Positions 3,943-33,158 of a DNA stretch of 64,000 nucleotides are shown here, piece after piece. Both the position numbers and the translations under genes were made by a program. Origin of the DNA: Candidatus Latescibacterota bacterium. GTDB taxonomy: Bacteria > Latescibacterota > UBA2968 > UBA8231. The stretch spans positions 1 to 64,000 of the forward strand of contig CBDFJF010000001.1 of assembly GCA_965248265.1 (NCBI GenBank), given 5' to 3'. The first letter of the stretch is position 1. Every line of letters begins with the position of its first letter. The notes under the pieces were generated by a model that saw only the letters and a program-made list of their open reading frames with translations, ran no database searches and had not been told where the DNA came from.

Positions 3943-3945
3943 GCG

Positions 3946-4176
3946 CTATCCCTTCGCTTTCTTGCTGCGCGTACGCTTCGCCTTCGGCATCGTTAGACGA
4001 TCCCACTCGGTCTGCCACTGATCGGCCGAGTCCTGGGTGTCCGGGCCTTCCCACTCGGTCTCGTCATTGATGCTGATGCGCAGGGTGGCGCTGATGGTGC
4101 GGCCGCGCGCGTTGCGCTCCTCCTCGCGCTCCAGGCGAATGGTGCTATCGCCGTTAACGACTTCCCGCAGAATCAT
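3946..4176 (-). CDS. Small hypothetical phage protein
   Basis: ATGA overlap with upstream stop at 4173-4176; basic C-terminus. Confidence 0.6.
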   Translation of the reverse strand: MILREVVNGDSTIRLEREEERNARGRTISATLRISINDETEWEGPDTQDSADQWQTEWDRLTMPKAKRTRSKKAKG

Positions 4177-5240: not shown

Positions 5241-5251
5241 GTGTTATCTCC

Positions 5252-5773
5252 TCAGTCCGCGCTGATCAGTGTGACCTGCGCCAGGACGATCCCGTGAATA
5301 AGCCAACCCCCGTTTTCCTGTGGCCCGAAATAGTCGAAGTCCGGTGTGTCAAGGACGAACACGTCGCCATCCTCGGCGATGCCGTCGAGCTGGTCCGATT
5401 CGGCGTGCGTCGTGGTGGCGAACGTCTGCAGCCGCAAACGGCGGCGCAGGTAGGCCATGATCTTCTTGAACTCCTGGTCGACGGTGTCGAAGTCGGCCCC
5501 CGCGTGCCACACGTCGAACAGCAGTCGATAGCCGTGCTCCCACTCCTGCATGGCCGAGCGATCATCTTCGCCAGCGCCGATGCAGAGCACCCCGATGGCC
5601 GGTAACTCGTGATCGTAGTACAGGTCAAAAGGGTCCTCTTCGTGCCGGCGAATCTTCTCATGCACGGTGGTCACGTTGGCCGTATCCCCGAGCCAGGCGT
5701 CCGCCTGGACGCAGTTCTTCCCGGCCGTCTCCAGCAGGTTGAACGCGTTCTTGCTGTCGAAGGCTGTGGCCAT
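5252..5773 (-). CDS. Putative tail terminator/completion protein
   Basis: Size and position between morphogenesis gene and tail tube; ELPAIGV motif. Confidence 0.55.
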   Translation of the reverse strand: MATAFDSKNAFNLLETAGKNCVQADAWLGDTANVTTVHEKIRRHEEDPFDLYYDHELPAIGVLCIGAGEDDRSAMQEWEHGYRLLFDVWHAGADFDTVDQEFKKIMAYLRRRLRLQTFATTTHAESDQLDGIAEDGDVFVLDTPDFDYFGPQENGGWLIHGIVLAQVTLISAD

Positions 5774-6288
5774 CAGCTCTCCATGTGCTCCACAGCCATC
5801 TCCTCAAACACCCGCGTGTCGCGCGGCACCTCGAAAAACAGGAACGGGCGACTCTTGGCCTGATAAGCCGCGTAGGCCACGTTGCCCGTGACCATCTCCA
5901 GACTCATGCCGCCGCGTCGGTACCTCGCTGAGGCGCCCGCAGCAGCAGCCAGACGGCCCGTGTCGCGCAACAGGTTGGAAGCTGGTGTGATTCGACGTCC
6001 TGAGGGTCGGCGTCGCCCACGCACGGTCCCTGAGCCTCGTAGCTTGCCCACGCCCCCCCAAGCCGGCACCTCGACCCCGTCGCTGCGTCGATACTGAGGC
6101 TTGTAGAAGTCCCAGGTCACACCACGGAAGGTGCCCCCGTGCGCCAAGCGCCTGAACATCATCGCCGTGCGCCCGATCATGTAGGTGTGGATGCGCCGCA
6201 ACAGGGCGCGCGGCTGTCGTAGCCGTTGCTTGAGCCGCACCTCTTGCTGGTCCATCTGGGTGTGCGTGATCTTGATTTTTAGGGGCAT
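5773..6288 (-). CDS. Virion morphogenesis protein (Mu gpG-like)
   Basis: LLRDTGRL...GNVAYAAYQ...RPFL motif. Confidence 0.75.
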   Translation of the reverse strand: MPLKIKITHTQMDQQEVRLKQRLRQPRALLRRIHTYMIGRTAMMFRRLAHGGTFRGVTWDFYKPQYRRSDGVEVPAWGGVGKLRGSGTVRGRRRPSGRRITPASNLLRDTGRLAAAAGASARYRRGGMSLEMVTGNVAYAAYQAKSRPFLFFEVPRDTRVFEEMAVEHMES

Positions 6289-6779
6289 CAGTTCAATCCG
6301 AAATCGTCTAGCGTGCCAGCGTCCCCCTGCAGCACATTGTCCTTGTAAGCCCCGCGTGAGAACACGGCGTCATAGCCGTCCGTGCTGGACCACGCCACCG
6401 AGGAAGAGGCCAGATCCGCGCCCGCACTGTCGTAGATGTCGATCTTGCCATCGCGGATCGACTCCAAGGCATCATGAGCCATCTTCCAGTAGGTGGCCCC
6501 CTGCCCCGGATTCTTGGCCGACTTGTTGATCTCGCGCAGCTTGAGGAATCCGAAGTAGGCACCCAGCCACCGCGCACACAGCTCAATCCAAGCGGGCGTA
6601 TCCGTGACATCAGCGAACTTCTGATTCGTCGACAGCATCGGGAACCGCGTGCCGACCATGCCATCCACCATCTTCGAGGCGTCCGTCACCCACTTGGTCT
6701 TGTCGGCCGCAGTGATCGAGGTCGGCAAGGTGTCGGGAAGCAGGGCTTCCACGTCAGTGGTGGTGGTGTAGCTAGGCAT
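6288..6779 (-). CDS. Head-tail connector (Mu gp36/DUF1320-like)
   Basis: MPSYTT..DV, ASKMVDGMVG.RF, A...LESIRDGKI pattern; position. Confidence 0.65.
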   Translation of the reverse strand: MPSYTTTTDVEALLPDTLPTSITAADKTKWVTDASKMVDGMVGTRFPMLSTNQKFADVTDTPAWIELCARWLGAYFGFLKLREINKSAKNPGQGATYWKMAHDALESIRDGKIDIYDSAGADLASSSVAWSSTDGYDAVFSRGAYKDNVLQGDAGTLDDFGLN

Positions 6780-6782
6780 GGG

Positions 6783-7067
6783 CTATCGCTTGAGGATTTC
6801 TGGGATGAAGCGCGCCGGGACGATGCTGCTCTTCTTCTTGGGCTGAGGCTGCTTCATCATGTCAGTGATGTAGGTCTTGCCCAGCTCAGCAAATCCCAAC
6901 GCGCGCACCATGTCCGCCTGCAGTCCTTCCGTCAACTGCACGATGATCCCCTGCGACCCATCCGGGTTTACGACCGTGGCGATGACCAGCTGATCGACGA
7001 CGGCTTGTTCGCCGCCGCCATCAGATTGCCCCCGTGCGGGGCGCGCGGCCCCGTTATTCTTCGCCAT
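6783..7067 (-). CDS. Hypothetical phage protein
   Basis: MAKNNG... with GGAT/GGCG upstream; tightly packed in late operon. Confidence 0.5.
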   Translation of the reverse strand: MAKNNGAARPARGQSDGGGEQAVVDQLVIATVVNPDGSQGIIVQLTEGLQADMVRALGFAELGKTYITDMMKQPQPKKKSSIVPARFIPEILKR

Positions 7068-7539
7068 CCGTCGCCTGTGCGATGTTCTCGACCAACTGCT
7101 CTTTGGTGACGCCGAATGGCGCCTCGACACCGACCTGCGCAGCGATCTCACGCAGATCGTTCATGGGCTTGTCCTGCCAGCCCTCCTCGAGCACGATCGC
7201 GTCGCCTATGGAGTCATCACGACCGGCTTCGTCTGCATTGGCGTCGTCTTCTTCATCTTCCTCTTCTTCGACGAACGGAGCCACCCAGGGCACCCACTCA
7301 CCCCGGACGCCACTCTTGTCGTCCGCGTCCGGCTCCCACTGCAGGATCGTGGCGTCTCCGGGTACTTCCTCCAGCTCAACTTCCGTGCAACCCAGTCCGG
7401 TGCCTGGGTTTTTCAGCTCTTCCTCCAGGCGCACATTGAGCCCTTCGACGAACACGGGTTGGCCGGTCGCAAACTCCAACCCCCCCCTGCGGAAGCGGCC
7501 GTCCGGCCACTGTGCCAGTGTCAGTCTGTGTATGACCAT
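7054..7539 (-). CDS. Mu gp35-like protein with C-terminal Rho-N/HeH-like motif
   Basis: GRFRRGG N-terminus; LREIAAQVGV..TKEQLV C-terminus; follows capsid gene. Confidence 0.55.
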   Translation of the reverse strand: MVIHRLTLAQWPDGRFRRGGLEFATGQPVFVEGLNVRLEEELKNPGTGLGCTEVELEEVPGDATILQWEPDADDKSGVRGEWVPWVAPFVEEEEDEEDDANADEAGRDDSIGDAIVLEEGWQDKPMNDLREIAAQVGVEAPFGVTKEQLVENIAQATDGEE

Positions 7540-7566
7540 TCCAAACCTCTTCGTTGATATGGGTGA

Positions 7567-7600
7567 AGGGATGCGACCCCATCACAGGGATCGCATCCCT
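7567..7600 (-). terminator. Stem-loop downstream of capsid gene (terminator or mRNA stabiliser)
   Basis: AGGGATGCGA (7567-76) / TCGCATCCCT (7591-7600) inverted repeat; no clear U-tract. Confidence 0.4.
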
Positions 7601-7636
7601 CATGAACTTTCGAATCCGCTACTGCGCCGTCCTGGT

Positions 7637-8572
7637 TTAGGTCAGCGTCGTCAGCACCGCGAACTGCCACAGGCCGTAGCCGACGTTGTAGCGGCTATCA
7701 ACCCCGAAGACCCACTCGCGACGCATGAAACCCGTCTCCGTGTTGTCGCCCAGCATCCCCGTGTGCATCGGCGACCCGTCATTGAACGCGCGCTGCTGGA
7801 AGATGAACGGCTTGATCGGTGCACCGACGTAGAACAGGTAGAAGCGATCGTTGTTCGTCAGGCGCGGATTCACGACCACACGGGCGACATTCTTGAGGAT
7901 GTTGTCCGTGTTGCTGATCGTGCTCGTCTCCGTCGTTTGCAGTGCCGCCTTGCGATGTTCCTTGGGCACCATGCAGATGAGGTTGGAGCTGTTCAACTGC
8001 CATTCCTCCAGGAACGGCTCGTTGCGATCGTCCTTGAAGCCGATCAGGGCCTCGATGGCCTGGTGCAACGCCGCCTCAAACTCGGCCTGTGTCGGTGCCG
8101 AGGGCGTGGCCACGTTGTAGGTCAGGTCGTTGTCCTGCGTCCCTGAGCTACCCTCGGAGTGGTCGGTGTCGAAGAAGAACTGCGAGTCGTAACAGGTCGT
8201 GGACTCGCCGTCGATGATCAACGTCGACAGCAGCGAGTCGACATGGCGCCGGGTGCGCTGGGCCATGTCGGTGACGCGCAGTCTGACCTGTCCGGTCTGG
8301 TCGTCCTCCAAATCGTCCTTGTCGACGCTGATGGAGGCTTCGTAGTGCTTGTTGACGATGGTGTAGGAATGATCGAGCAGTCCCTTGGGAACCCGCTCAT
8401 CGACCCACTCCCGCATCGTCGGGGCCGTACCGAGCCACGCGTACTTCTCCTGATCCGCCGAGGACGGAACCTCAGTGGAGATGTCAGGATAGATGGGGGT
8501 GGCTGCCTCGTAGGCCCGATAGAAGGTCGCCTTCAGACCTTTTTCGAGGACTACAGGATCAACAACTGCCAT
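7637..8572 (-). CDS. Major capsid protein (Mu gpT-like)
   Basis: EKYAWLG.P.MREW, YTIVNKHYE, FFDTDH, KPFIFQ.R, FGVDSRYNVGYGLWQFA motifs. Confidence 0.92.
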   Translation of the reverse strand: MAVVDPVVLEKGLKATFYRAYEAATPIYPDISTEVPSSADQEKYAWLGTAPTMREWVDERVPKGLLDHSYTIVNKHYEASISVDKDDLEDDQTGQVRLRVTDMAQRTRRHVDSLLSTLIIDGESTTCYDSQFFFDTDHSEGSSGTQDNDLTYNVATPSAPTQAEFEAALHQAIEALIGFKDDRNEPFLEEWQLNSSNLICMVPKEHRKAALQTTETSTISNTDNILKNVARVVVNPRLTNNDRFYLFYVGAPIKPFIFQQRAFNDGSPMHTGMLGDNTETGFMRREWVFGVDSRYNVGYGLWQFAVLTTLT

Positions 8573-8644
8573 GTTTCATCTCCTTGCTAAAGCCGTCCCC
8601 CGTGGCGGCTGCGATTGAAAAACTCTCTTCTACGGATGGCCCCT

Positions 8645-9439
8645 TTAGTTCAGGGCGATCTCGAGCGTGACTCCGATGTCACCGGCCGTGGTCTCAGCCC
8701 CGGTGCAGTTGACGGCGAAGTACCATGCGTCGCCCGGATCACCGTCCAGATCAGCCGCCGTGGCCGTCAGTGTCAGATCGGCCGCCTGCTTGGCCGTGAG
8801 CCCGTCTACATCGTAGTCGGCGGCGGACAGCTGCTGCTTCTCGGCGGTCCCTGACAGGTCGTACTTGTATACGTTCAGCAGCTCGTCGGTGGCGTAATTC
8901 GGCTTCACCATCGCCAAGACTTTGCCTGCCAGCAGTGTTGCTTTTCGGCCGGCCGGAACGGTGAAAATGTGCCCGAATCTCTCGCCGACGAACGTGCTCA
9001 AGCTCCCCGAAGCGATGATCTTGTCGCCCAATGCCGCCTGCACGGCCGGCCCGATGTCGACGAGGACCTCGGTGGACGACACGAACTGGGCGATGATGCC
9101 ACAGTAAACGTTGCCGGGTGTGAGCGTGACGGTTTGGTCATCGCTGACGTACACCCGCTTGCCGATGTCCGTGATCGCCATGCCGGTGCAGGCAAACGAG
9201 AACAGGCCGCTGCGCTGCACGCGTACCTCTTTGTCGCCGTTCGAGCCGCCCGAGTTGTCCATCTTCTCCCAGGCAACTCCCGAGAAGATGAAGGACGCGG
9301 TGTCCTGGGCGGCGACGGCGTACCCTGCCGTGTCGAGGGCGACCATACCGCCGCGGTAGACGATGTCGATACCGCCTTCCAGCTGGAGGATGTCGCCGTC
9401 GCGGCGTTCGGTCTGCCGATTGTCCGTAAGTGCTGCCAT
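8645..9439 (-). CDS. Capsid decoration/cement-like protein with C-terminal extension
   Basis: MAALT.NR.T, IVY.GGMV, GVA.E..DN..G..G, DIG..VY.SDDQTV motif typical of gene preceding Mu-like capsids. Confidence 0.65.
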   Translation of the reverse strand: MAALTDNRQTERRDGDILQLEGGIDIVYRGGMVALDTAGYAVAAQDTASFIFSGVAWEKMDNSGGSNGDKEVRVQRSGLFSFACTGMAITDIGKRVYVSDDQTVTLTPGNVYCGIIAQFVSSTEVLVDIGPAVQAALGDKIIASGSLSTFVGERFGHIFTVPAGRKATLLAGKVLAMVKPNYATDELLNVYKYDLSGTAEKQQLSAADYDVDGLTAKQAADLTLTATAADLDGDPGDAWYFAVNCTGAETTAGDIGVTLEIALN

Positions 9440-9507
9440 TTATCCTTGCCTCTTCAAAGCGTGAGCCCCGTGCCCGCGTTTATCGTTTTAGTGCGCACCG
9501 CTTACTA

Positions 9508-10782
9508 TCAGCGGTCGATGCTGTTGGCCAAATCTTCCTCACTGACTTCCATCAGCTCGTAGAACTCGCGATTCTCGGCGAATTCGACTGCCGCCCTGGC
9601 TTGGGCATCGGACTGCGTGTCATCGGAGGGCCTCTTGTCGGCTCCGCCCACCTCCTTGAACTCCACCACCAGCTTGTTGCCCTTGGCCGCGTCGAGGAGA
9701 TTGCCCAACAGCTCCTGGAAGAATTCCAGGGCCGTCTGCTCTTTGCCCTCGGCAAAGGTGATGGCCTCCCGGTAGTCCAACCGCTCCATGAACACCGCCA
9801 GGCCGGTGCTCTCATCGAGCAGCGCCGGAGCCATACCACGCTCCTTGAGGCGATCGCAGTAGATGCCGATGGCGTTGCGCTTCGTCTTATATGTGATGTC
9901 TGCCAACCCCTCCGAGACTTTCTCGTCGATCGTCGCGGCCGTTTTCTCCTCATATTGCTCAACGGCACTGGTGGCTGCGTCGTTGACGATCTCAGCCAAC
10001 TCAGCCTTAGTCAGGGTGACAGTGCCGTCTCCGGCATCTGCATTCGGTTTGCTCATTGACTCGCTCCTTTCAGCGAAGGAATTGACTATCGTTTCCCCGT
10101 TTTCTTCGAGGAGCGAACTCAGCTCTTCGAACAGGGCGGAGACCTGACTCCGCTTGTCCTCAGCCGCCAACTCCTCATCGTAGATGATGCGCCACAGCTC
10201 GTCGGAGGCGATCCAGCGGATGCGCTCCAGCTGCTGCATGGCGTCTTCGCGCAGCATGGTCTTTTCGATCAAGCCCTCGTCCTGGAACAGATCGCGCAGA
10301 TGTTGATACAGGCGTTTGAGCACATTGTTGGTGGCGCTTTCGTAGGTGACGACCTCTCCCGCATCCTCCGCCCACGCCACGTCCGGCAACCCTTTGACCT
10401 CGGGCGCGTCCGCACCTAGCCAGGCGATCGCCGCCAGATACTTTCTGCCCGTGTTGCGGAAGTCCGACCACATCTCGATGCTGCGTTTCTTCCACAGCCC
10501 CTCCTGCACCCATTCGACGAACTCATCAGGGACTTGCTTGAGTCGCGCCCACAACATGCCGTCCCGCTTGAACAGCTCATCCACCCAGCCGTAAGCCTGA
10601 TCTCCAGGCTGGCGATCATCGCGGTGGCCCAACACGCAGGGCGCCTCGTGCACGGAGGCATCATACGTGGCGATCAATTCATCGATGTCCGCGTCCGTTA
10701 TCACGCTGGTACCGCCGTGGTATACTCCGGGTTTGAAGATGGCCACCTCCAACCCGTCTGCGCTGAAGCGAATGTCTTTCAT
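9508..10782 (-). CDS. Head maturation protease/scaffold (Mu gpI-like)
   Basis: IFKPG, AP.VLGH, AYGWV, KKRSIE, WLGA..P.VKGL; acidic helical C-terminus. Confidence 0.8.
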   Translation of the reverse strand: MKDIRFSADGLEVAIFKPGVYHGGTSVITDADIDELIATYDASVHEAPCVLGHRDDRQPGDQAYGWVDELFKRDGMLWARLKQVPDEFVEWVQEGLWKKRSIEMWSDFRNTGRKYLAAIAWLGADAPEVKGLPDVAWAEDAGEVVTYESATNNVLKRLYQHLRDLFQDEGLIEKTMLREDAMQQLERIRWIASDELWRIIYDEELAAEDKRSQVSALFEELSSLLEENGETIVNSFAERSESMSKPNADAGDGTVTLTKAELAEIVNDAATSAVEQYEEKTAATIDEKVSEGLADITYKTKRNAIGIYCDRLKERGMAPALLDESTGLAVFMERLDYREAITFAEGKEQTALEFFQELLGNLLDAAKGNKLVVEFKEVGGADKRPSDDTQSDAQARAAVEFAENREFYELMEVSEEDLANSIDR

Positions 10783-20829: not shown

Positions 20830-22440
20830 GTGCCCCATCTCTCACCCGATCAGAAAGATCACATCGTCCGTGAGTGCGGGGGTCTCACGGGCCGCGAGCG
20901 AACGCGCATGGTTCGCGAGCTGTCCGTCAAGTACAACTGTCATACATCGACCATCTACCGAGCCCTACCCAGAGCCAGTGGACCTCGGCGCGCAGATCAC
21001 GGCACAGAGCGATGTGACGTCTCGGAGGAGGCGTACATGAAGATGCTTGCTCTATCCACCACGAGAGATCTCTCGGGGGATGAGGTGATCGAACTGGCCG
21101 AGAACAGCGGCTGGATCAAGCGCGGCTCGGTATCGGTTCCTACGTGGAACCGATGGCTCAAGCGTCGCCAGCTTTCGAAGCGGCAGCGCGAACGGTTCAT
21201 CAAGCCATATGTGCGCTTCGAAGAATCCTTCTCGAACGAGCGACACTACATCGACATCACTGGCTTCCCAGACTACTTCGTCGAGCCTGATGGCTCCATC
21301 GGATTTGAGTCGACGTTGAGTGTTTCGAAGAATCGCGCGGGCAATCGCAAACCGCGACTCCAGTTGTTTTGGTTGACGGACGGACACAGCCGCACCCAGT
21401 TCGCCCGTTTCTTTCAAGGCAAAAATACATTGAACTGGGTTGAATTTCTCGTAGAGGCGTGGGGTGTGAAAGAGGACCCCTACACCTTCCCATTCCAGGG
21501 CCGGCCCCGGCAGTTGTACTCTGATATGGAGAGCATCTTTTTTACGCCGCTGATGAAGCGGTTCCTCAGCGCGATGGACGTTCGATATCAACACCACGTC
21601 CCCGGCAACTCTCGCGCCAAGGGAAAGGTCGAGCGCCCCATCGGCGTGGCACAGAACTGGCTACGTCATTCCTTCGGGCTCATCAAGAAGCCGACACTAA
21701 CCCAGGCCAACGCTCACCTGCAGGACTTGCTCTACAAGATTAACGGGCGAGTGCACCGAACGACTCACCAGCGACCGCTTGAGCGATGGCAAGGTGGCTT
21801 CCCATCAGACCATGCGATTCGACTCATGCCGGATGAGCGGGTGAGCGCGCGCTTCTTTTACACAAGTGTGAACAGAGTGATACAGGGCGACCTCACCGTT
21901 CAGCTGTCCGGGTTGAAGTGGCAGCTCCCGCGCAAGGCTCCGTTTACCAATTGGAGTGGGCAATCCGTGCCCGTCTTCTATCACCCAGGCGAGGGGCTCC
22001 GATCAATCTTCGTCGTACTAGACGAAGTGGAGTACGAGGTCGAGCACTCCACACCGGTGCCTGAAGTCGCTGGCACATTCCGCAAGATTCCTGCGACGGA
22101 TCAAGAGAAGCTGCTTGAGGAGTTAGAGGAGGTCGATCTGTCAGACGCCCAAGTAGGCGGCCACAAAGAGCGCTATGCACGAAGGACCTTCCTTCCCGCG
22201 CCCGGAGAAGAGCTGGACGTTGAGTCTCTTCAGCTGCCACGCCGTGCGTTACCTCGCATCCAACTGATCCAGCGGCTTCAGGCGCTGGGGTTGGTATGCG
22301 TGCCTCCTTCGCCCTCAGAAAAGGAGTGCCTCGACGCACTCTATGCCGAAGACGCGCAGGTCTTCGAGGAAGACCTTGACCGAATCATTGAAGAGCTATC
22401 CGGCGGTTCGTCACAGTTCCGGGTACAAGCCGCTTCGTAA
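20830..22440 (+). CDS. Mu-like DDE transposase (A)
   Basis: N-terminal HTH; YIDIT, LYSDME, KGKVERP catalytic triad; N.RVH.T....P..RW. Confidence 0.9.
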   Translation: MPHLSPDQKDHIVRECGGLTGRERTRMVRELSVKYNCHTSTIYRALPRASGPRRADHGTERCDVSEEAYMKMLALSTTRDLSGDEVIELAENSGWIKRGSVSVPTWNRWLKRRQLSKRQRERFIKPYVRFEESFSNERHYIDITGFPDYFVEPDGSIGFESTLSVSKNRAGNRKPRLQLFWLTDGHSRTQFARFFQGKNTLNWVEFLVEAWGVKEDPYTFPFQGRPRQLYSDMESIFFTPLMKRFLSAMDVRYQHHVPGNSRAKGKVERPIGVAQNWLRHSFGLIKKPTLTQANAHLQDLLYKINGRVHRTTHQRPLERWQGGFPSDHAIRLMPDERVSARFFYTSVNRVIQGDLTVQLSGLKWQLPRKAPFTNWSGQSVPVFYHPGEGLRSIFVVLDEVEYEVEHSTPVPEVAGTFRKIPATDQEKLLEELEEVDLSDAQVGGHKERYARRTFLPAPGEELDVESLQLPRRALPRIQLIQRLQALGLVCVPPSPSEKECLDALYAEDAQVFEEDLDRIIEELSGGSSQFRVQAAS

Positions 22441-22454
22441 TAGGAGGGATCTGA

Positions 22455-23375
22455 ATGCGCAACATCCATCACATAGATATACCGGCCGACGAACTAGACA
22501 AGCTCGGATTGAAACGGGACCCATTCGCGTGGTTGCCCGAGCAGGCGTCCGATTACTTCTACGGCACGGACATGGGCCTGGTTGAGCTGGCGCTGCACCA
22601 GACCATACACCGCCCCGGCATCGCTGCTGTAACCGGCGAGGTGGGCTCAGGCAAATCCTCCACCGTCAGGCGTTTCGTAGAGGTCAACCTGCTGCCCAAT
22701 AAGGAGTATGTGGTGAGCTGGGTGGATGCGCCCCAAATGAGGCGCGTCGATATGCGTCACGTGTGCCAAAAACTGCTTCACGATTTTCAGGGAGACCTCA
22801 ACACCGGCCGCGCGATCATGAAAGTTGCCGAGAATGTTCGCGACACCGTGGAGGGATTGGCCGACGAGGGTATCCGTCCTGTCCTCATCATTGAGGACGC
22901 ACAGCTGCTGGGCCTGCAGCCGCTGCGCGAACTGAAGTTGCTATACGAATTGCGCAGGCGGATCAAACACATCCTCGCCATCATCCTGATTGGTCAGCCG
23001 GAGCTGTTTGCGACTCTTCAGCGCCAAGACATGCGCCAGCTAGCACAGCGCTGCCGCATGCACCGCGTGCACGGACTCAAGCGAGACCTCCCTCAATATG
23101 TAAAGCACCGCTTTAAGAAGGCACACGCGAGTGCGGAGGATTACTTCCACCCGGAGGCGCTGAAGGAGTTGATCGCACACCCTGCGATCTCCACGCCTAT
23201 GGAGGTGAACGTGCTGTGTGCGAAGGCACTCCGGTTTGCCTTCAAGCAGGGCGAGCAGAGGGTGAGTCGAGAGATGATGGTAACTGTGTTGAGTGCGCAT
23301 GGCGGGGATGAGGGAGGGACACCAATCGAAGTCGAGATCCCTGCATCACCCACAAAGGCAAGGAGGGTGGCATGA
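22455..23375 (+). CDS. Transposition AAA+ ATPase (MuB/ExeA-like)
   Basis: GEVGSGKS Walker A, LIIEDAQ Walker B, LIGQPEL. Confidence 0.88.
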   Translation: MRNIHHIDIPADELDKLGLKRDPFAWLPEQASDYFYGTDMGLVELALHQTIHRPGIAAVTGEVGSGKSSTVRRFVEVNLLPNKEYVVSWVDAPQMRRVDMRHVCQKLLHDFQGDLNTGRAIMKVAENVRDTVEGLADEGIRPVLIIEDAQLLGLQPLRELKLLYELRRRIKHILAIILIGQPELFATLQRQDMRQLAQRCRMHRVHGLKRDLPQYVKHRFKKAHASAEDYFHPEALKELIAHPAISTPMEVNVLCAKALRFAFKQGEQRVSREMMVTVLSAHGGDEGGTPIEVEIPASPTKARRVA

Positions 23376-25970: not shown

Positions 25971-26269
25971 GTGCCAAGAAGAAACGCGCCTACTTGCTGG
26001 AGACGCGCTGGGCGAGTGGGTTCATCGTGTACCAGCGACTGAGGATTCATCGCTTCAAGGAGACGGGGTTGGAAGTCGAAGACCTGGCCCTGGTCGACTA
26101 CGCGAGCGAGTGGGACAAGATCGATCGCCATATATACGACAGCATTCCTGCGTTGATGCGAGGTCTTAGTGGCGATAGACGCCGCTCCAATGGGACCGCG
26201 ATGCCGATAAGACTGCACCCTCACTTCGAGTTGCAGATCCGCAAACGCCTACTGAAGGAGGCAGCGTAA
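25967..26269 (+). CDS. Hypothetical phage protein
   Basis: Coupled ORF ending EAA. Confidence 0.55.
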   Translation: MSAKKKRAYLLETRWASGFIVYQRLRIHRFKETGLEVEDLALVDYASEWDKIDRHIYDSIPALMRGLSGDRRRSNGTAMPIRLHPHFELQIRKRLLKEAA

Positions 26270-26712
26270 TGGCCGAACGCACGTGTCTTCCCATCTACCA
26301 AGAGGCGCGAGAAAAACATGCCGGCACCGACCCGGAGAAGCAGCGTGCCTTCGCGGCCGGGTTCCTACATGGACAGGCCGAGAAGGTCTACCTGGGTGCG
26401 TGCTACGCGGCCATGTTTCGACCGTCATCACAGGGCGCCGCATCGTTGCTCGAGCTGGCCGGAGAAGCGGCAACACTCTATGGGTTGGAGGTTGTGCATC
26501 TCAAGAACGGTGAGATCTGGATCACGACTGAGGGTGACGTCCATCAGGTTTGGCACATCGAGGATCTCGTGAAGGACTCTCCACAGTACCACCATCATCG
26601 AGGGTGGCTGTGTGGAGTTCCCCACCACGCGATTGATCCACTCTTCCATGAGCGCGACGGATACGACGGACGAGATGAGGCGTGCGCGGTTGCAAAGGCA
26701 AACGACCAATGA
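26269..26712 (+). CDS. Hypothetical phage protein, paralog of 28880..29347
   Basis: Shared RAFA.GF..G.AEKVYLGAC.AAMFRP.S and HH.RG.L.GV....ID..FHER. Confidence 0.75.
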   Translation: MAERTCLPIYQEAREKHAGTDPEKQRAFAAGFLHGQAEKVYLGACYAAMFRPSSQGAASLLELAGEAATLYGLEVVHLKNGEIWITTEGDVHQVWHIEDLVKDSPQYHHHRGWLCGVPHHAIDPLFHERDGYDGRDEACAVAKANDQ

Positions 26713-27026
26713 GCGGTTGCGCCACACCCGGCTGCAAGGGGTTCGGGGGCAAGCGCCCGTACTGCACTCACTGCGGCCCGACAGAGGCGATGGAGCGCCT
26801 GTTGAGAGCGATCGCGGACGGAGCTGTGTTGAGGGGTCGTCGGCGCGGGCTCTTCTCCTACGCCTGGCTGGAGCTGCCTGACGGGGTTCGCAAGGTCGTG
26901 AAGCTCAATACAGTAGTGGCCGCGCTGAAGCGTCAACTGTTGATCGCCCTGCCACCGTCCCCTAGTGATTGGAGGTTCAGGTTGTCGGCGAAGTCGGAGG
27001 AGATCCTGAGCCTGGACCGAGAGTAG
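26709..27026 (+). CDS. Hypothetical protein with Cys cluster
   Basis: ATGA coupling; CxxxxC...CxxC. Confidence 0.5.
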   Translation: MSGCATPGCKGFGGKRPYCTHCGPTEAMERLLRAIADGAVLRGRRRGLFSYAWLELPDGVRKVVKLNTVVAALKRQLLIALPPSPSDWRFRLSAKSEEILSLDRE

Positions 27027-27360
27027 TCTGGCGCACGAATCCCACGAGGTCCTTTTGCGCCTGGATGACGCCGGCAATGTTCAGTGTGTGAATCTGGAAA
27101 AAGATACCCGACGTCGCCGCTGCAATTGTAAGAGCCGATGACCGGTCCAGCGGAGCAGAGGGATCGGCAAACTGTCGCCATAGCAACCAGAGGCAGGAAA
27201 CTATGCTCAACACGATTACGCATTTCGCTACCGTCGCAGCTTCCATTTTCCTAGGCGTTTGGTTGGAGCGGTCGAATACCCTGTGGATCAACTTGTTGAA
27301 CGACTTCTGGGTCAGGATGGCAATTATAGTAGCGATGGCTATCCAATTCTCCGTGGTCAT
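26977..27360 (-). CDS. Antisense membrane protein (moron)
   Basis: AGGAG RBS; 2-3 hydrophobic helices. Confidence 0.6.
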   Translation of the reverse strand: MTTENWIAIATIIAILTQKSFNKLIHRVFDRSNQTPRKMEAATVAKCVIVLSIVSCLWLLWRQFADPSAPLDRSSALTIAAATSGIFFQIHTLNIAGVIQAQKDLVGFVRQTTLGPGSGSPPTSPTT

Positions 27361-27437
27361 CTGGAAAGGGCTCCTCGTTAGGCGTACGCGGGGCAGTGCC
27401 GACGAAAAAGGAGAAAGCGAATCAGGCGCGCAAGCGG

Positions 27438-27465
27438 AGTCCCGATAAGGCCAATTATGGAGAGC
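27438..27465 (+). repeat. dif-like junction site A: AGTCCCGATAA GGCCAA TTATGGAGAGC
   Basis: 11-6-11 layout, shared with sites B-E. Confidence 0.7.
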
Positions 27466-27606
27466 CTGATGAACTCACATTCTGATCGGCACGATTCACA
27501 GGATTCAAAGGGGCACCTGGGTAACAGGCACGGTGCCCTCGTGTTCGTGGAGTTTTTCGCGTGGATCGCGGGATTCGTCTGGATCATTTGGTCGGCATGC
27601 AACTAG
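27457..27606 (+). CDS. Small membrane peptide (below ORF-track cutoff)
   Basis: MESLMNSHS...ALVFVEFFAWIAGFVWIIWSACN; start at 27457 or 27469, right after site A. Confidence 0.4.
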   Translation: MESLMNSHSDRHDSQDSKGHLGNRHGALVFVEFFAWIAGFVWIIWSACN

Positions 27607-28186
27607 GGGCTTCCCACAGAGCCCCTTGCAGTATGCCAGCCACGCCCAACAGCACGGGGAAAATGAAGTCGTTCATGTGTTGGATTGCTGCTGCCGCGAT
27701 GCTGACAAGTGGGAGTGAAGCTTCGCGCAATGCAGCATGCTCCGTCGGATCGTACTTGAGTTTTCGTTGAATTCTATAGCCAAGACGCCAACCTCGGTGG
27801 GTAGACATATGGAGCGCAAGGGCAAGGTTTCCCAGCTGCACGCGGTATGTCTTGAAAGTGATAAAAACGCTACTCCGCCACTCCCTATCGACGTCGTAGG
27901 CGAGCGTCACAAAAGAGAGAAGGAAGTAGCCGATGGCGACGGCAAGGCCGCGCATGATGACAGCCTGCTCACCAGGACTACTGATCTCGATCCCCAACTG
28001 GCTGACCTTCGTTGGGACCAAGCCAGACATCGCCATTGCGATGCACAGCGCTGACAACAGAATCAGCACTCGGCGTGTGCGCCGTGCGCGCTCTTCGAGT
28101 CCTTGGGCTTTGAGTTCGTGGAGAAATTTGCTCCGTGCCGCTCTGAGTTCATGCAGGCACTGGTTGACAGTCTTATCAGAATCCAT
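27584..28186 (-). CDS. Antisense multi-TM membrane protein (moron)
   Basis: 200 aa ORF with ~3 TM segments. Confidence 0.65.
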   Translation of the reverse strand: MDSDKTVNQCLHELRAARSKFLHELKAQGLEERARRTRRVLILLSALCIAMAMSGLVPTKVSQLGIEISSPGEQAVIMRGLAVAIGYFLLSFVTLAYDVDREWRSSVFITFKTYRVQLGNLALALHMSTHRGWRLGYRIQRKLKYDPTEHAALREASLPLVSIAAAAIQHMNDFIFPVLLGVAGILQGALWEAPSCMPTK

Positions 28187-28224
28187 GCGCAGGAATGTAA
28201 GGACCGTGAGGCCAGTCGATCCAG

Positions 28225-28252
28225 ATTCCCGATAACGCCGGTTAAAATGAAT
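28225..28252 (+). repeat. dif-like junction site B: ATTCCCGATAA CGCCGG TTAAAATGAAT
   Basis: Same layout; stop codon of 28252..28542 abuts right arm. Confidence 0.7.
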
Positions 28253-28542
28253 CAGCCGTGTGTTCCGCCAAGAAGCCCGTACAACCAGACTAAGACTCCT
28301 AATGCGAGCATGGCTGCCGGCCAGAGCAGGTTCGATCTCTCGCTTGCGAGCTCTCGGAATGTGGCATTCGTAAAGAAGAGGAAGCCGCTTATCGCGATCA
28401 CAAATCCAGGGATGACGAAAAGAGACATGGCCCAGATGCTAAGGAGCAGCTCTCCAATCCCAACTGGCTCGTATCTCAAGAAATGACCTACACCGAGTAC
28501 GAGAAGGACCGAGGCGATGCATGCAATCGCTGCAAGTTTCAT
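28252..28542 (-). CDS. Antisense small 3-TM protein (moron)
   Basis: Highly hydrophobic 96 aa ORF between sites B and C. Confidence 0.6.
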   Translation of the reverse strand: MKLAAIACIASVLLVLGVGHFLRYEPVGIGELLLSIWAMSLFVIPGFVIAISGFLFFTNATFRELASERSNLLWPAAMLALGVLVWLYGLLGGTHG

Positions 28543-28591
28543 GGATTACCTTAGCGCAGAGCTTAGATCGATTGTGGATTGGACACCATAG

Positions 28592-28619
28592 ACCAACGAT
28601 AATGCCATTTAAAGGGAGT
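28592..28619 (+). repeat. dif-like junction site C: ACCAACGATAA TGCCAT TTAAAGGGAGT
   Basis: Followed by CAACGG-ATG (28626). Confidence 0.72.
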
Positions 28620-28625
28620 CAACGG

Positions 28626-28883
28626 ATGTACCTCGAAAGCACGGAAATCAGCGGAGAATTGTCGGTTGAGGAGTACCGCAACCAGATGGTGACAGCGCTT
28701 GAGCGTGATGTGCGGAGCATTGCCTACGCCATCACGGAAATACGCGACCTGTTCAAGTGCCCCGAATGCGACGGCGCCGGAGGAGCGCGTATCACAGAAG
28801 AGCCGTCTGAGGACAACGACTTCGAGGGCTGGAGGTTCAAGGGTTGCGCCCGCTGTGACCGCAAGGGGATTGTCCGCCCATGA
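28626..28883 (+). CDS. Small protein with DnaJ-like CxxCxGxG Zn finger
   Basis: CPECDGAG...CARCDRKG; GGAG RBS inside site C. Confidence 0.6.
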   Translation: MYLESTEISGELSVEEYRNQMVTALERDVRSIAYAITEIRDLFKCPECDGAGGARITEEPSEDNDFEGWRFKGCARCDRKGIVRP

Positions 28884-29347
28884 ACCGACAGAATGTGACC
28901 TGTGGCCCGCTTTACCGGCGTGTCCGCGAACTCTTCACCGGTGACGCCCCCGAACTCAATCGCGCCTTCGCGCAGGGATTCACGGCCGGCGAGGCTGAGA
29001 AAGTCTATCTCGGCGCCTGCAAGGCTGCCATGTTCCGCCCGACATCGTCGATTGGCCGCGAGCTGCTACGCTCCTGGGTATCAGACATTTGCGGCGTGTA
29101 CGGGCTTTGCTGGACCACACTGGAGTATGTGGACCCGAGTCGTGATGGCGAGGCGGTATACGAGTTGTGGATCTGTCGGGACAACGATGCCGTCGATGCC
29201 GTCGAGTCAACAACCGCCATCGAAGTCAACAGTCTCTCCTGGCATCACTGGCGGGGGCTGCTGACAGGTGTGGCTGATGGCGAAATCGACCTCCACTTCC
29301 ACGAGCGCCAGAGCGCTGGAGACATCGACGGAACATTGGCGGACTAA
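28880..29347 (+). CDS. Hypothetical phage protein, paralog of 26269..26712
   Basis: Shared motifs; stop codon lies in site D left arm. Confidence 0.75.
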   Translation: MNRQNVTCGPLYRRVRELFTGDAPELNRAFAQGFTAGEAEKVYLGACKAAMFRPTSSIGRELLRSWVSDICGVYGLCWTTLEYVDPSRDGEAVYELWICRDNDAVDAVESTTAIEVNSLSWHHWRGLLTGVADGEIDLHFHERQSAGDIDGTLAD

Positions 29348-29370
29348 CGATAAGAAACCTACTGAGGAGT
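29343..29370 (+). repeat. dif-like junction site D: ACTAACGATAA GAAACC TACTGAGGAGT
   Basis: Followed by CAACGG-ATG (29377), same spacing as site C. Confidence 0.7.
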
Positions 29371-29376
29371 CAACGG

Positions 29377-29763
29377 ATGGGCGACGAATGGGAGAGAGCG
29401 AAGCCAACCGGGTGCCCTTTTCTGCGGTATCTCGACGCATACCCGATAGGCAACTGGGTTTCAAGGGGTGAGCCTCCATGCAGACAGAAGATTTGCGGGA
29501 AGGATAGTTGCTACCAGTACGGGCGCTCCTACAGAGACCGAGAGCGACTTCTGGTTCTCCCAGTTGGGACGCTGATGTTCAAGCTCTCTCCAGAGCTGGG
29601 TGACGGACAAAGCAGCTCGATTGTGAAGAACATCGATCACGCCATCGAGGCGGTACGTGCGTGGATGGAGGACAGGAAGCACGGCGATGACATCGGCGAA
29701 GAATGCCAAATCGAGTGCGTGGAGATGACGGAAGCCGAGATTGCGGCTCTGCCTGAGCTATGA
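29377..29763 (+). CDS. Hypothetical phage protein
   Basis: C-terminal EMT.AEI.ALPE motif; RBS from site D. Confidence 0.55.
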
Positions 29764-30041
29764 GAATCCGCCCGCTCTTTGCCTGGTACGACATCTGGAT
29801 CGGAGCGTTCTGGGACAGGTCCAACCAGCGGCTCTACCTGTTCCCGTTGCCCATGATTGGGCTGAGGATTGATTTCAGAGGGGAGTCAACGATCATGGAG
29901 GACAACTGGGAAACGACGTGCCCAAACCGCGATGACGGTCAGCACTGCAACTGCTGGTATGATGGCGAGCCGTGCTGTGCCTGTGGCGATGACTGCGAAG
30001 AAGACAGGCAAGACGAAAATTGCTTTGCGGACGCACGATAA
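29760..30041 (+). CDS. Hypothetical protein (apparent fusion of two mini-ORFs)
   Basis: [17 protein letters not shown] part, then internal GGAG-ATG (29895) Cys-rich part; stop is TAA of site E. Confidence 0.55.
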
Positions 30042-30058
30042 TTCCGATTACTGGGAGT
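30031..30058 (+). repeat. dif-like junction site E: ACGCACGATAA TTCCGA TTACTGGGAGT
   Basis: Same layout, followed by CAA. Confidence 0.72.
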
Positions 30059-30075
30059 CAATCGAACGAGAGGAC

Positions 30076-30282
30076 ATGAAATCTTGCTACCTCCATTTCA
30101 GGGGGACGGCACAGCCCCCACTTGAGATCAGCGCGACGGACGCTGCCACGATCATCAGATGCAACTATGCCTCGGTGGAAGCCGTTGAGCTGATGGAGGA
30201 GCGGCTTCGCGAAGGCAAGCGAGTGTATGTCGAGAGCGGGCACATCCGCCTGCATAGCTTCACACTCATTCACAGCAATTGA
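30076..30282 (+). CDS. Hypothetical phage protein
   Basis: GAGGA RBS, MKSCYLHF... Confidence 0.5.
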   Translation: MKSCYLHFRGTAQPPLEISATDAATIIRCNYASVEAVELMEERLREGKRVYVESGHIRLHSFTLIHSN

Positions 30283-30291
30283 GGAGATCCT

Positions 30292-30489
30292 ATGAGCGGG
30301 AATAGCAAGGAGCGGCGCAGGCTCAATCGCCTGACGAACGGGCTTCTTCCGAGACTCAATGAGTTGGAGGAGGAGGTGGAGTATCTACGGGAGGACACAG
30401 CGTATCTCGAAAGGGGTATTCACCAGTTCTCAGCTGGGGGTTGGTCTGTATTTTGGCGATGGCTCTGGAGTGGCTTCTCCTGGAAGTGA
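30292..30489 (+). CDS. Small coiled-coil protein
   Basis: GAGGAG RBS; coupled to next gene. Confidence 0.55.
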   Translation: MSGNSKERRRLNRLTNGLLPRLNELEEEVEYLREDTAYLERGIHQFSAGGWSVFWRWLWSGFSWK

Positions 30490-31271
30490 GCTGCGCGAGT
30501 TGTGGCGATCGAGGTTTCGTGTATGTCCAGGCTGATGAGCGAGTGGGACAAGGCCACGGCCAATTGGAGATCTGCCGGTGTGTTCGTCCTTTGTGCCGTT
30601 GCGGAGACCAGTCTCCCTACCTCTACTGGGATGAGGAGTCCGTGCGCCGCGACTGCCCCTGTAGAGCGCCTCGGCACCGGATACAGGTAGTGAACCACCT
30701 GGTCAAGATCTCGGGAGTGCCCGACCGCTATCGCTGGAAGTTCCGCACGGACTTCCTCGACGCCGAGCAGCCAGGACTGGCCGGCAAGATCCGGGCCTCG
30801 ATCGCGAAGCTTGTGGACTCCCAGGAGCCGCCGAAGCAGGGCCTGTTCCTGCATGGCACACCAGGCACCGGCAAGACGCTGTTGGCCAGCATCGTGCTCA
30901 ATGAGCTGATGTACTGGAGGATGAAGCGGGGTCGGTTCGTGAACCTGGCTCGATCGCTGTTTCCTCGACTTCGGCAGACAATGTCAGAGGGGTCTCAGGA
31001 GAGCGGGAAGCTCTTCCAGATCCAGGAGCGGTTGGCCACAGTCCCCTACCTGGTGATCGACGATCTGGGGGTGCAGCGCGGGACCGAGTGGGAGGAGGAG
31101 ATCCTGTACGACCTGGTCGATGCGCGGTATGCGGAGCAGCAATTCACGGTAGTTACGACGAACACGCCTCTCGATGAGATCGAAGGGATCTCGCGAGGGC
31201 GGATCTACTCACGGCTCAAGGAGATGTGCCGATGGTTGAAATTGGAAGGGACGGACTGGAGATGCGAATAG
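30486..31271 (+). CDS. DnaC/IstB-like AAA ATPase (helicase loader-like)
   Basis: Cys-rich N-terminus, GTPGTGKT, LVIDDLG, VTTN, RIYSRL.EM. Confidence 0.85.
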   Translation: MSCASCGDRGFVYVQADERVGQGHGQLEICRCVRPLCRCGDQSPYLYWDEESVRRDCPCRAPRHRIQVVNHLVKISGVPDRYRWKFRTDFLDAEQPGLAGKIRASIAKLVDSQEPPKQGLFLHGTPGTGKTLLASIVLNELMYWRMKRGRFVNLARSLFPRLRQTMSEGSQESGKLFQIQERLATVPYLVIDDLGVQRGTEWEEEILYDLVDARYAEQQFTVVTTNTPLDEIEGISRGRIYSRLKEMCRWLKLEGTDWRCE

Positions 31272-31504
31272 CAGAACCGTCCGATCGGGGCCGTGTGGTA
31301 GCGGTCGTAATCCCCCGCTACCTCGAAGCATGGGCACTTTTGAATCCGTTGTCGAGCATGAAGACATGGACGATAACATGCGGTAGGTGTTCCCACTCTT
31401 GGCGAGAAAAAGTCCCGCTTGTCAGGGTCTGTTCGGCTGTGTGCCCGTGCTGCAGGACGCAGAACCGATGGGAACTTATCCTTGAGGAAGACTCGGAGGC
31501 TTGA
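31262..31504 (+). CDS. Small Zn-ribbon protein
   Basis: CGRC...CPCC. Confidence 0.5.
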   Translation: MRIAEPSDRGRVVAVVIPRYLEAWALLNPLSSMKTWTITCGRCSHSWREKVPLVRVCSAVCPCCRTQNRWELILEEDSEA

Positions 31505-33158
31505 TCTCTTGCTGAGTGAGTCCTTCGAAGTACTCTGCACTGTTATCAGACTCGTCTACTATCATCACGTTCACCTCGGCCCTATCTGGCGAGACGATCA
31601 GGTAAGCCTGTCCGTGAGTTACTGGATCTGCCGCCCCGGTCTGTTTGGTACAGACACACTCCTGAGCGCGCCTCTTATTGCTGAGTGGGGCCAGGATGCG
31701 GTAGCAAACTGCTGGCGTCGGCCATGTGGGGAAAAGATTCCAAGCTGCAAATTCATCCGCGTGCAGATTCGCAGACAGACTCGCCCAAGTCCCAAAAGGT
31801 TCGGGGTGATTAGTGTCGCTGTCCAAGAAACCATCCACATATTTCATGAAAAAACGGTGTCTGCGCGCGGCTTCAGCATCAACTTTCTCGCTAAGCTCCT
31901 TCTGGGATCTCCGCTTTGCGCGAAGGTCTACCATCGTTCCCGCGACATTTTCATGGACGTCTTCTGCGCGCCTGGCTTTGTCCAACCACCCCTGTGCTTG
32001 GTCAAGAAGATCTGCACTGATGAGTGTCTTCGCCAGGTTAGACATTGCCAGCGTATTTCCAGCGTTGGCCGCCTTTTCGTAGTGCCCTATGGCGAGAGAT
32101 TCCAGTCCGATCTTGTCGCAGCAGACACCCAAATTATTGATCGCCAGGTCGTAGTCGGGCCGAAAACTCAAACATTTCGTGTAGTGAAGCCGGCTGACCT
32201 CCGATTGGCCCGCGCGATAATAGGCAAAGGCTGAGGCAAAGCGAATGTCTACATCGTTCGGTGTAATCTCTAGGATCTTCTCAAGAATAAGCGCCTGCGC
32301 TAGATACTCATTCCTCTTGCCATGCAGATCGGCTACTCCTTTGTAGGTGTCGACCCTCGCAGCTGAATCGGTGAACGTCCCTATGGCGTTAGTCAAGTCC
32401 TCTATTGCCTTTTCCTTTTGATCTATCTCCCATTTACTCTTCGCTGCGGCAACGAGAGCTTTTGCGGTTGATTTCTCAGTATCTGCATCGAGTGCAGCTT
32501 GATCAAAAGCACGGACAGCAGCCTCATGATTGCCGGCTTCTCGGTAGCAGGCACCGACCAGAAATTGAGCATTGTGAGGAGGATTCTCACTGGCGGCCAG
32601 CTCCATCAGCCTGTCAAGTGCTGATTTGTCGTCTGCGAAGCGGAACCGGAGGGAGAGATACAGTGCTTCATTTCGGGCTTTTTCTCCAGTATTGGCCTCG
32701 GCGTCTTGTGCCTTGCGATAAGCCTCCTCCCCACTTTCTATGTTCCGCGTGTAAAAGTCCATTTGCATTTCGAGTATCCAGTGATCCGCGCTCTGTGGCC
32801 CCTGGCGCTGCTCCCCTTTGTCCTCCCCCCCCTCCTCTGGATGAGGGGCTTTGGCCAACCCTTCACTTGAATCTTGTACTTCAGTTTCCAGTGCCGCCGA
32901 AGTATCGACGAGATCAGCGGGTGGTGTGGTTCTCGCCTCAATTTCAGTGTCCTTGCGCTTCCACCGCAGCCGAAGATTCGGAAGAGCCTGTTTCACTTCC
33001 TCGCGAAACACGTACAATATGAGGACCACCGCAGGAATCCCGAGTAGGATGAGCAAGGCTGGCGCCGCATCCTTCAGCATTACCCCAATTGCCTCTACCA
33101 TCTCCTTATCCATCAGTCGGTTCTCCCTGGATTTGGCCCCAAAGCATTGCCTTTCCAC
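31476..33158 (-). CDS. Membrane-anchored TPR-repeat protein (moron)
   Basis: N-terminal TM helix; TPR-like repeats (AINNLG, AMSNLA); antisense at prophage end. Confidence 0.75.
   Translation of the reverse strand: MERQCFGAKSRENRLMDKEMVEAIGVMLKDAAPALLILLGIPAVVLILYVFREEVKQALPNLRLRWKRKDTEIEARTTPPADLVDTSAALETEVQDSSEGLAKAPHPEEGGEDKGEQRQGPQSADHWILEMQMDFYTRNIESGEEAYRKAQDAEANTGEKARNEALYLSLRFRFADDKSALDRLMELAASENPPHNAQFLVGACYREAGNHEAAVRAFDQAALDADTEKSTAKALVAAAKSKWEIDQKEKAIEDLTNAIGTFTDSAARVDTYKGVADLHGKRNEYLAQALILEKILEITPNDVDIRFASAFAYYRAGQSEVSRLHYTKCLSFRPDYDLAINNLGVCCDKIGLESLAIGHYEKAANAGNTLAMSNLAKTLISADLLDQAQGWLDKARRAEDVHENVAGTMVDLRAKRRSQKELSEKVDAEAARRHRFFMKYVDGFLDSDTNHPEPFGTWASLSANLHADEFAAWNLFPTWPTPAVCYRILAPLSNKRRAQECVCTKQTGAADPVTHGQAYLIVSPDRAEVNVMIVDESDNSAEYFEGLTQQEIKPPSLPQG

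Follow-up and report, generated by a model that had tools for sequence, protein, structure and literature searches.

Dif-like junction sites between small genes of a prophage early operon and in chromosomal arrays of a Latescibacterota genome: candidate Xer-type exchange sites

Prophage context and the five sites

The DNA analysed here (the window) is the first 64 kb of contig C1 (CBDFJF010000001.1) in the genome of a Candidatus Latescibacterota bacterium (GCA_965248265.1), which comprises 7.32 Mb in two contigs (C1 and C2) and has a G+C content of 59.5%. It contains a prophage, in the distal early operon of which five 28-bp sites, A to E, resemble Xer/dif-type recombination sites and separate small genes. 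Genes encoding the phage portal, protease, major head, minor tail and terminase proteins occupy positions 1 to 16.3 kb on the - strand and are followed by a repressor-like and a CII-like gene. The early operon is encoded on the + strand and includes genes for a DDE transposase-like protein (20830..22440) and an AAA ATPase (22455..23375), many small open reading frames (ORFs) and a DnaC-like loader; host genes start near 33.3 kb. None of the 18 PF00589 (tyrosine recombinase) matches of the genome lies in C1:1-64000, in agreement with the first-pass annotation, which had found no such enzyme in the visible prophage.

The same annotation had described five same-strand sites of an 11-6-11 layout within 2.6 kb, and these were recovered, reading exactly as quoted, at positions 27438, 28225, 28592, 29343 and 30031 of the + strand. 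Each consists of two arms of about 11 bp around a 6-bp central region (spacer), with an inner ATAA/TTAT dyad as is typical of Xer/dif sites; A, B, C and E keep ATAA-N6-TTA and D keeps ATAA-N6-TAC. All five sites fall at gene boundaries, as had been claimed. The left arm of site A (27438..27465; spacer GGCCAA) holds the TAA stop codon of ORF 27203..27448, and the left arms of D (29343..29370; spacer GAAACC) and E (30031..30058; spacer TTCCGA) hold the stop codons of ORFs 28880..29347 and 29760..30041, respectively. Site B (28225..28252; spacer CGCCGG) is situated between two antisense genes and adjoins the stop codon of one of them (28252..28542). In site C (28592..28619; spacer TGCCAT), the right arm contains GGGAGT, followed by CAACGG and an ATG at 28626, and D shows the same order of GGAGT, CAACGG and ATG (29377). 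An extension beyond the 28 bp, GGAGTCAAC(G), is common to C, D, an internal start at 29882 and the sites at C1:676210 and C1:786805. The proposal that GGAG in the right arm serves as the ribosome-binding site (RBS) of the next gene is plausible for C, D and A, where GGAG precedes the ATG at 27469 by 6 nt. It does not suit B, after which there is no + strand gene, or E, beyond which the ATG at 30076 stands at a distance of 18 nt and has a GAGAGGA of its own.

Such sites are enriched in the stretch from A to E. The pattern CGATAA-N6-TWM, which is post hoc in that it was written after the sites had been seen, occurs five times in the 64 kb, always in A to E, compared with 0.51 occurrences expected from shuffled sequences. 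With a degenerate arm consensus, six places in the window score at least 16/22; five of these are A to E, at 17 to 19, and no other place reaches 17. Genome-wide, 150 places in 7.32 Mb score at least 17, versus 92 in a reversed-sequence control. At this density, 0.054 places would be expected per 2,621 bp, the length over which five were observed. No sigma-70-like promoter (-35/-10 hexamers 16 to 18 nt apart) was detected between 26500 and 31500. A reading of CGATAA as a sigma-28 element was dropped, as A to E have no TAAA-like element at the right distance.

The units delimited by the sites are short and encode small proteins on either strand. Unit A-B (27466..28224) contains a small + strand ORF (27469..27606) and an antisense ORF of 200 aa (27584..28186), neither with a Pfam or PHROG family. 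Unit B-C (28253..28591) is occupied by an antisense gene for a predicted 96-aa membrane protein (28252..28542). Units C-D (28620..29342) and D-E (29371..30030) carry two + strand ORFs each (28626..28883 and 28880..29347, of 85 and 155 aa; 29377..29763 and 29760..30041, of 128 and 93 aa). Small unit proteins could not be assigned to a Pfam or PHROG family (0/10 against Pfam and PHROGs, 0/5 in a second scan), and the 155-aa protein was found in none of 75 genomes of the same family. ORFs 28880..29347 and 26269..26712 of the early operon are paralogues with about 43 to 45% identity. ORF 29760..30041 has an in-frame internal GGAGTCAACG..ATG at 29882-29897, also written GGGGAGTCAACGATC-ATG, which resembles the starts after C and D and has no left arm; its last 48 codons specify a Cys-rich peptide, and the annotated 93-aa ORF may therefore be two parts.

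Candidate chromosomal dif of the host

The first-pass annotation had likened the sites to the dif/Xer architecture, and this likeness extends to a candidate dif of the host itself. Only one perfect (22/22) palindrome of 11-6-11 layout is present in the genome (C2:3484647-3484674). It lies between mutL and a gene for a 345-aa protein with Phage_integrase and SAM_1 domains (C2:3483353-3484390), 257 bp upstream of the latter, and the cumulative GC skew of C2 has its maximum 1.7 kb away. Single orthologues of this recombinase, with 54 to 73% identity, occur in 26 of 36 genomes of the same family and in none of 24 genomes from three other families. Near the recombinase gene, a near-palindromic 28-mer with at least 16/22 arm matches was found at 22 of the relatives' 26 loci, mostly 100 to 450 bp upstream, and it reaches at least 19/22 at 17 of the 26; the second-best 28-mer scores at most 15 at all 27 loci. 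The GC skew changes sign at the locus, with values of about +0.05 to +0.10 before it and about -0.04 to -0.11 after it, in this genome and in all five relatives with long contigs. We regard the palindrome and its neighbouring enzyme as the candidate chromosomal dif and recombinase of the family; a linked Xer enzyme has a precedent in the XerS/difSL system (PMC2731167). The enzyme matches the XerC, XerD, XerA and XerS models weakly (at most 119 bits; cut-offs, 220 to 335). The genome also encodes an XerD-like protein (C2:769733-770650) and an XerC/IntI-like protein (C1:1754213-1755118), the latter scoring 239.6 bits on an integron-integrase model, below its cut-off of 265, and encoded far from any array.

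A to E resemble this candidate dif primarily in the left arm. Likeness was scored by mismatch counts. Of the 11 positions of the candidate dif arm, the left arms reproduce 8 in A, 10 in C and 9 in E, and D has all 11. The right arms match at 5 to 7 of 11 positions, or at 7 to 9 when the consensus admits the GGGAGT arm seen in palindromes of a sister genus. For whole sites (left plus right arm, of 22), A scores 8+7 and C 10+7 against the candidate dif, and B 8+6 by our own tally, which is below the threshold of 15 applied in that scan; against the degenerate consensus, A and B score 11+8 and 10+7. The earlier statement that the arms are conserved thus holds for the left arm and not for the right. 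Genome-wide, 68 places match the candidate dif arms at 16/22 or more, versus 7 in the reversed-sequence control, which indicates a real family of about 60 dif-like sites. These are of three kinds: the candidate dif, about 40 sites of IS91 type and array sites such as A to E.

Arrays elsewhere in the genome

Array sites occur on one strand within each array, at a spacing of 0.2 to 0.8 kb, and delimit units with small ORFs on either strand. Besides A to E and a partial copy of this array at C1:1594-1599 kb, five sites are found at C1:675820-677959, between an ECF-sigma/TPR gene and a Kelch-like gene and without any phage context. Three more are present at C1:786782-787593 and four at C2:3430611-3431515, beside a Gam-like gene, both outside a prophage structural context. 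The idea that the motif is a property of the prophage is therefore not upheld: the same sites form chromosomal arrays without a phage, and the same core ends IS91-family elements. The site at C1:677339 is like B in that it adjoins the 3' end of an antisense gene and precedes no sense gene.

The spacers had been said to differ all from one another, which is correct within each array; between arrays, the same spacers recur. The spacer TTCCGA is present at four independent loci (C1:30031, C1:676792, C1:786782 and C2:3431488) whose sole similarity is the 28- to 37-nt site, and CCCTCG is also found at four loci and forms the last site, after TTCCGA, in three arrays. The order CGCCGG-TGCCAT is common to the window, its copy and C1:675820/676187. 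Difference within arrays together with recurrence between them would be expected of central regions that determine compatibility. The Xer sites of Acinetobacter baumannii plasmids were reported to form cointegrates and not to excise modules, with compatibility set by site sequence (PMC11705084).

Two further features were observed around the arrays. Sites with the spacer CCCTCG are followed by about 40 to 100 nt conserved at 86 to 89%, with no start codon nearby (C1:677932-678057, C1:787566-787697 and C1:366394-366458). An identical stretch of 25 nt (C1:675731-675755 and C1:786738-786762) precedes the first site by about 20 to 65 nt in two chromosomal arrays that are otherwise unrelated, and is possibly an array leader.

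Searches beyond the genome returned few matches. A strict phage-type pattern had 15 matches in this genome and at most 4 in each of the 75 family genomes, mostly their own palindromes, while two patterns had none in genome contigs and none in viral contigs. Two single pattern matches in metagenome contigs were judged to be due to chance, the contigs having 33 to 39% G+C. At nine DnaC-linked loci of relatives, no dif-like sites were present. A DNA search with positions 26000-33000 against phage records returned one record, which matched over 69 nt of the DnaC-like gene only; the transposase-like protein had no relative in viral contigs, and no known RNA family (Rfam) was detected in positions 1-34000.

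Shared blocks and their borders

Two blocks of the early operon recur elsewhere in the genome, and site B forms the left border of both. Positions 28227-28628 are 99.3% identical to C1:675822-676223 in the non-phage chromosomal array. The 385 bp between the spacers of B and C are 100% identical, and no mismatch is found from position 3 of the left arm of B to 2 to 3 nt past the spacer of C; all three mismatches are in the right arm of C and the ribosome-binding stretch before the ATG. Similarity is absent after this ATG and upstream of B, so that C is the right border of the block. The second block (28234..32295, + strand) has 4,062 bp and recurs with 100% identity at C1:1594164-1598225, within a second prophage-like element. 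On the left it begins at the border between left arm and spacer of B, and the copy joins the spacer and right arm of B to a different left arm. Its right end (32295) lies inside a TPR gene (31476..33158), which is truncated in the copy. Unit B-C is thus present in 100% identical copies in three genomic contexts.

Of the four block borders, three fall on B or C, and the two informative ones among these mark the outer limits of the central regions. The right end of the 4-kb block does not coincide with a site. In contigs assembled from four sequencing runs of one sample, branch points occur at 28227, 28234 and about 28581-28610, and parts present in one, two and three copies have depths of 13, 28 and 43, which indicates that the three contexts are real. 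The proposed integron-style excision and capture of cassettes found no support, as adjacent spacers differ and the contigs of these four runs contained no recombination joints.

The second prophage-like element has sites of its own. At C1:1598265-1598748 it contains two sites with the spacer TGCCTC, in direct orientation and 275 bp apart, and another strong site precedes the gene for a 386-aa tyrosine recombinase (C1:1599536-1600696) by about 0.8 kb. Positions 1-10396 of the window (phage tail and head genes) are 100% identical, in inverted orientation, to C1:3161133-3171528, and positions 1-2432 also match both ends of C2. Near-identical prophage segments at the contig ends probably broke the assembly.

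Dif-like cores in IS91-family ends and in relatives

The IS91-type sites share an upstream A-tract with TTGAC and a terminal TTAT..CACTA..GC and end repeats of about 110 to 215 bp, the similarity stopping abruptly a few nucleotides after the core. In IS91-family elements, at the end distal to the transposase, and in solo ends of about 215 bp, this core (arm, N6, TTAT) forms the subterminal palindrome. Five inspected sites are about 200 to 480 bp downstream of, and co-oriented with, transposase genes (Y2_Tnp with or without Zn_Tnp_IS91). There are 16 Y2_Tnp matches genome-wide and none in the window. Such elements and solo ends are found at C2:1134276-1156261 and about 40 other places (including C2:570036, 1273577, 2705452 and 2800225), often just upstream of sulfatase or secreted-protein genes. 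IS91 oriIS ends are reported to have subterminal palindromes (PMC13181058), and the oriIS region of ISCR1 is described as 232 bp with outward promoters and variable DNA past it (PMC6218425). By comparison with these, the IS91-type sites fit an oriIS end, one that mimics the host dif. A to E have neither the upstream A-tract/TTGAC stretch nor the terminal CACTA..GC motif. In another genus of the family (two genomes, loci L102-L105), dispersed repeats terminate in a dif-like core with TTATTTATCCTATACTT after it and are clustered, with four in 10 kb in one genome, so that multi-copy ends of this dif-like kind occur family-wide.

Paired sites are present in the sister genus, the palindromes of which have the form ACTCCCGATAA-N6-TTATCGGGAGT and include the GGGAGT right-arm ending as an arm variant. 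In 12 genomes (loci L060-L086; e.g., L070:1501-1792), the palindromic site is accompanied by a second site; the distance is about 240 to 310 bp in 11 genomes and 1.4 kb in the twelfth. The weak arm of the second site overlaps the RBS of a conserved gene for a 298-aa secreted protein with a signal peptide. The paired spacers are always reverse complements and co-vary through four variants, as expected for paired recombination sites, and the layout is that of an invertible segment, which makes the pair a candidate invertible switch.

Proposed function and alternative explanations

We consider A to E to be Xer-type junction sites that permit the exchange of units between loci, a variant of the Acinetobacter dif modules, and we give this reading a probability of about one in two. 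The sites are predicted from their sequence to be akin to xrs/pdif sites: one arm would bind a recombinase strongly, the other is degenerate, and a central region of 6 bp lies in between. They are candidate members of a genome-wide set whose prototype would be the host chromosomal dif beside its dedicated Xer-like recombinase. Identical site-bounded blocks elsewhere in the genome point to recombinase-based swapping of small genes.

The dif-like sites, their arrays and the mosaic borders are observed; from these we infer binding, catalysis and an exchange route as follows. A host tyrosine recombinase would bind the sites; the Xer-like enzyme encoded at the terminus is the first candidate, and XerD-like and XerC/IntI-like enzymes are also encoded. 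Different central regions at neighbouring sites would spare an array from deleting itself, while sites at different loci that have the same central region would recombine. Paired events, or cointegration followed by resolution, could then move a unit between arrays or prophages. A unit in sense orientation would be closed off by the TAA at the end of the left arm and translated in the operon through the GGAG that the right arm can provide; antisense units occur too. This combination of stop codon and ribosome binding may be an adaptation or a by-product for sense-oriented units.

Several findings weigh against this interpretation. Searches beyond this genome, in the collections covered, detected neither related arrays nor related phages, and all array evidence comes from one genome. 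No recombination joints were seen in the contigs of the four runs, which represent one sample and one study; contigs cannot show rare forms. The low likeness of the right arms to the candidate dif arm (5 to 7 of 11) makes binding of a second monomer doubtful, and the XerD-like and XerC/IntI-like genes provide further candidate catalysts. As the core also occurs in IS91-family ends, another enzyme class could read it. The 4,062-bp block has 4 to 6 nt of microhomology at both ends and, given its off-site right end, could have been made by illegitimate recombination; in the P3/P4 comparison, similarity begins at the outer edge of the left arm and not at the spacer. Finally, no inversion of the segment between the paired sister-genus sites was observed, the orientation being the same at all nine alignable loci (two more had no alignable middle).

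Among the alternatives, it is unlikely that the sites are regulatory or translational junction elements without any recombination, such as targets of an Xer-like repressor or a dimeric regulator, or a stop-plus-RBS module. This would account for GGAG(T) 6 to 8 nt before the start codon at A, C, D and several sites in other arrays, for their shared extension, for the overlap of the second sister-genus site with the RBS of the secreted-protein gene in 12 genomes and for the single orientation of the segment in the 9 alignable ones. However, B and C1:677339 abut antisense 3' ends with no sense gene after them, the GGAG of E is 18 nt from the start codon, and the region lacks a sigma-70-like promoter. 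A translation signal needs no 11-nt arm identical to dif, a regulator needs no matched, co-varying spacers, and neither anticipates block borders that coincide with sites. We also find it rather improbable that A to E are passive boundary sequences, i.e., dif-like copies that were spread by duplication and now provide short homologies for general, phage-encoded homologous or illegitimate recombination. The microhomology and off-site right end of the 4,062-bp block would suit this explanation, as would the P3/P4 and P3/P6 similarities, which are centred on whole sites plus flanks instead of ending at spacers, and the Mu Gam-like gene in one array-bearing element. Yet the positions that define the dif arm are kept while the DNA between sites is unrelated, which implies selection on the arm. 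The informative borders coincide with edges of the central regions in B and C, and the recurrence of spacers in the same order across arrays would be unexpected under random duplication; moreover, a homology of 9 to 13 nt is very short for RecA-type exchange.

Very improbable, in our view, is a third origin of the pattern, in which a rolling-circle (HUH, Y2) transposase of the IS91/ISCR family would use the sites as origin-like hairpins and would have brought in the units by one-ended transposition. The genome, with its 16 Y2_Tnp matches, does carry the same core at the transposase-distal end of IS91-family elements and solo ends, and both the oriIS subterminal palindromes of IS91 (PMC13181058) and the variable DNA past the 232-bp oriIS of ISCR1 (PMC6218425), as reported, are compatible with it. 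A to E nevertheless lack the A-tract/TTGAC and CACTA..GC motifs, and the window lacks a Y2 transposase match. Judging from element geometry, the DNA shared from B onwards is on the side opposite to that mobilised by an oriIS, and unit B-C is bounded by sites at both ends.

The Xer-type junction-site reading can be extended, tentatively and with considerable doubt, to a spacer-coded exchange network. A single Xer-like recombinase with dif as its home site would act on dozens of sites whose 6-bp regions serve as heterospecific addresses; units would be traded among prophages, chromosomal arrays and possibly IS91-family ends, and prophage sites would double as stop/RBS adaptors. If this is true, dif modules would have their first example beyond Acinetobacter, and also their first in an operon of a phage. 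Exchange of this kind would link phage mosaicism to a housekeeping enzyme of the host and provide a natural case of heterospecific central regions governing which sites recombine.

Comparison with known systems

Mosaic temperate phages have short conserved boundary sequences at the gene junctions where mosaic joints fall. A to E differ from these both in their likeness to the host dif, of which phage boundary sequences are not known to be copies, and in their 11-6-11 dyad, which such sequences are not known to have.

Like integron cassettes, the units described here are small, mostly promoterless and ORFan-like and form arrays separated by recombination sites on one strand. Unlike in integrons, there is no integrase, attI or Pc beside the array, and the sites are 28 bp and dif-like, whereas attC sites are folded and 57 to 141 bp long. 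Reports of integrons and attC sites extend to phage genomes (PMC9892861). The prophage also resembles integrative mobile elements exploiting Xer (IMEX), such as the CTX phage, in having no tyrosine recombinase of its own and dif-like sequences that a host Xer system could use (PMC4246890). However, IMEX have one attP and integrate as a whole element at dif, while here five sites are found in a prophage with a DDE transposase-like module, far from dif.

A candidate dif beside a recombinase gene, at a switch in GC skew, is a feature shared with XerS/difSL, XerH/difH and the Legionellales system. In contrast to these single-recombinase Xer systems, the enzyme here gives weak matches to the Xer models, and the genome also keeps XerD-like and XerC/IntI-like genes. 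The oriIS ends of IS91/ISCR elements have the 28-bp core in common with the sites, as well as an imperfect subterminal palindrome, outward promoter-like hexamers and variable DNA past the end (PMC6218425, PMC13181058). They differ from A to E in having a transposase, a conserved upstream part of 100 to 215 bp and a terminal motif. The analysis yields a new candidate dif/Xer pair that can be tested for a whole bacterial family, together with the mimicry of dif by IS91-family ends.

The closest parallel is with the dif modules on Rep_3 and other plasmids of Acinetobacter, in which multiple 28-bp sites of 11-6-11 layout punctuate accessory genes, the same module occurs in different contexts, extra chromosomal dif-like sites exist and neighbouring central regions differ. 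Acinetobacter pdif sites usually alternate in orientation. The sites described here instead have one orientation per array and are located in a prophage early operon and the chromosome rather than on plasmids, their second arm is degenerate and can double as an RBS, and the host is unrelated to Acinetobacter and has, as its candidate dif, a perfect palindrome next to the gene of a divergent Xer-like enzyme. Acinetobacter sites were reported to recombine between replicons and not to excise modules, with compatibility again depending on sequence (PMC11705084). Acinetobacter modules have pdif sites on both flanks, and dif modules were reported to be characteristic of this genus (PMC6449649). Xer-site modules have accordingly been regarded as a peculiarity of Acinetobacter plasmids (PMC6449649), and the same logic in a prophage and the chromosome of an unrelated bacterium would generalise Xer-based gene shuffling as a route by which accessory genes flow.

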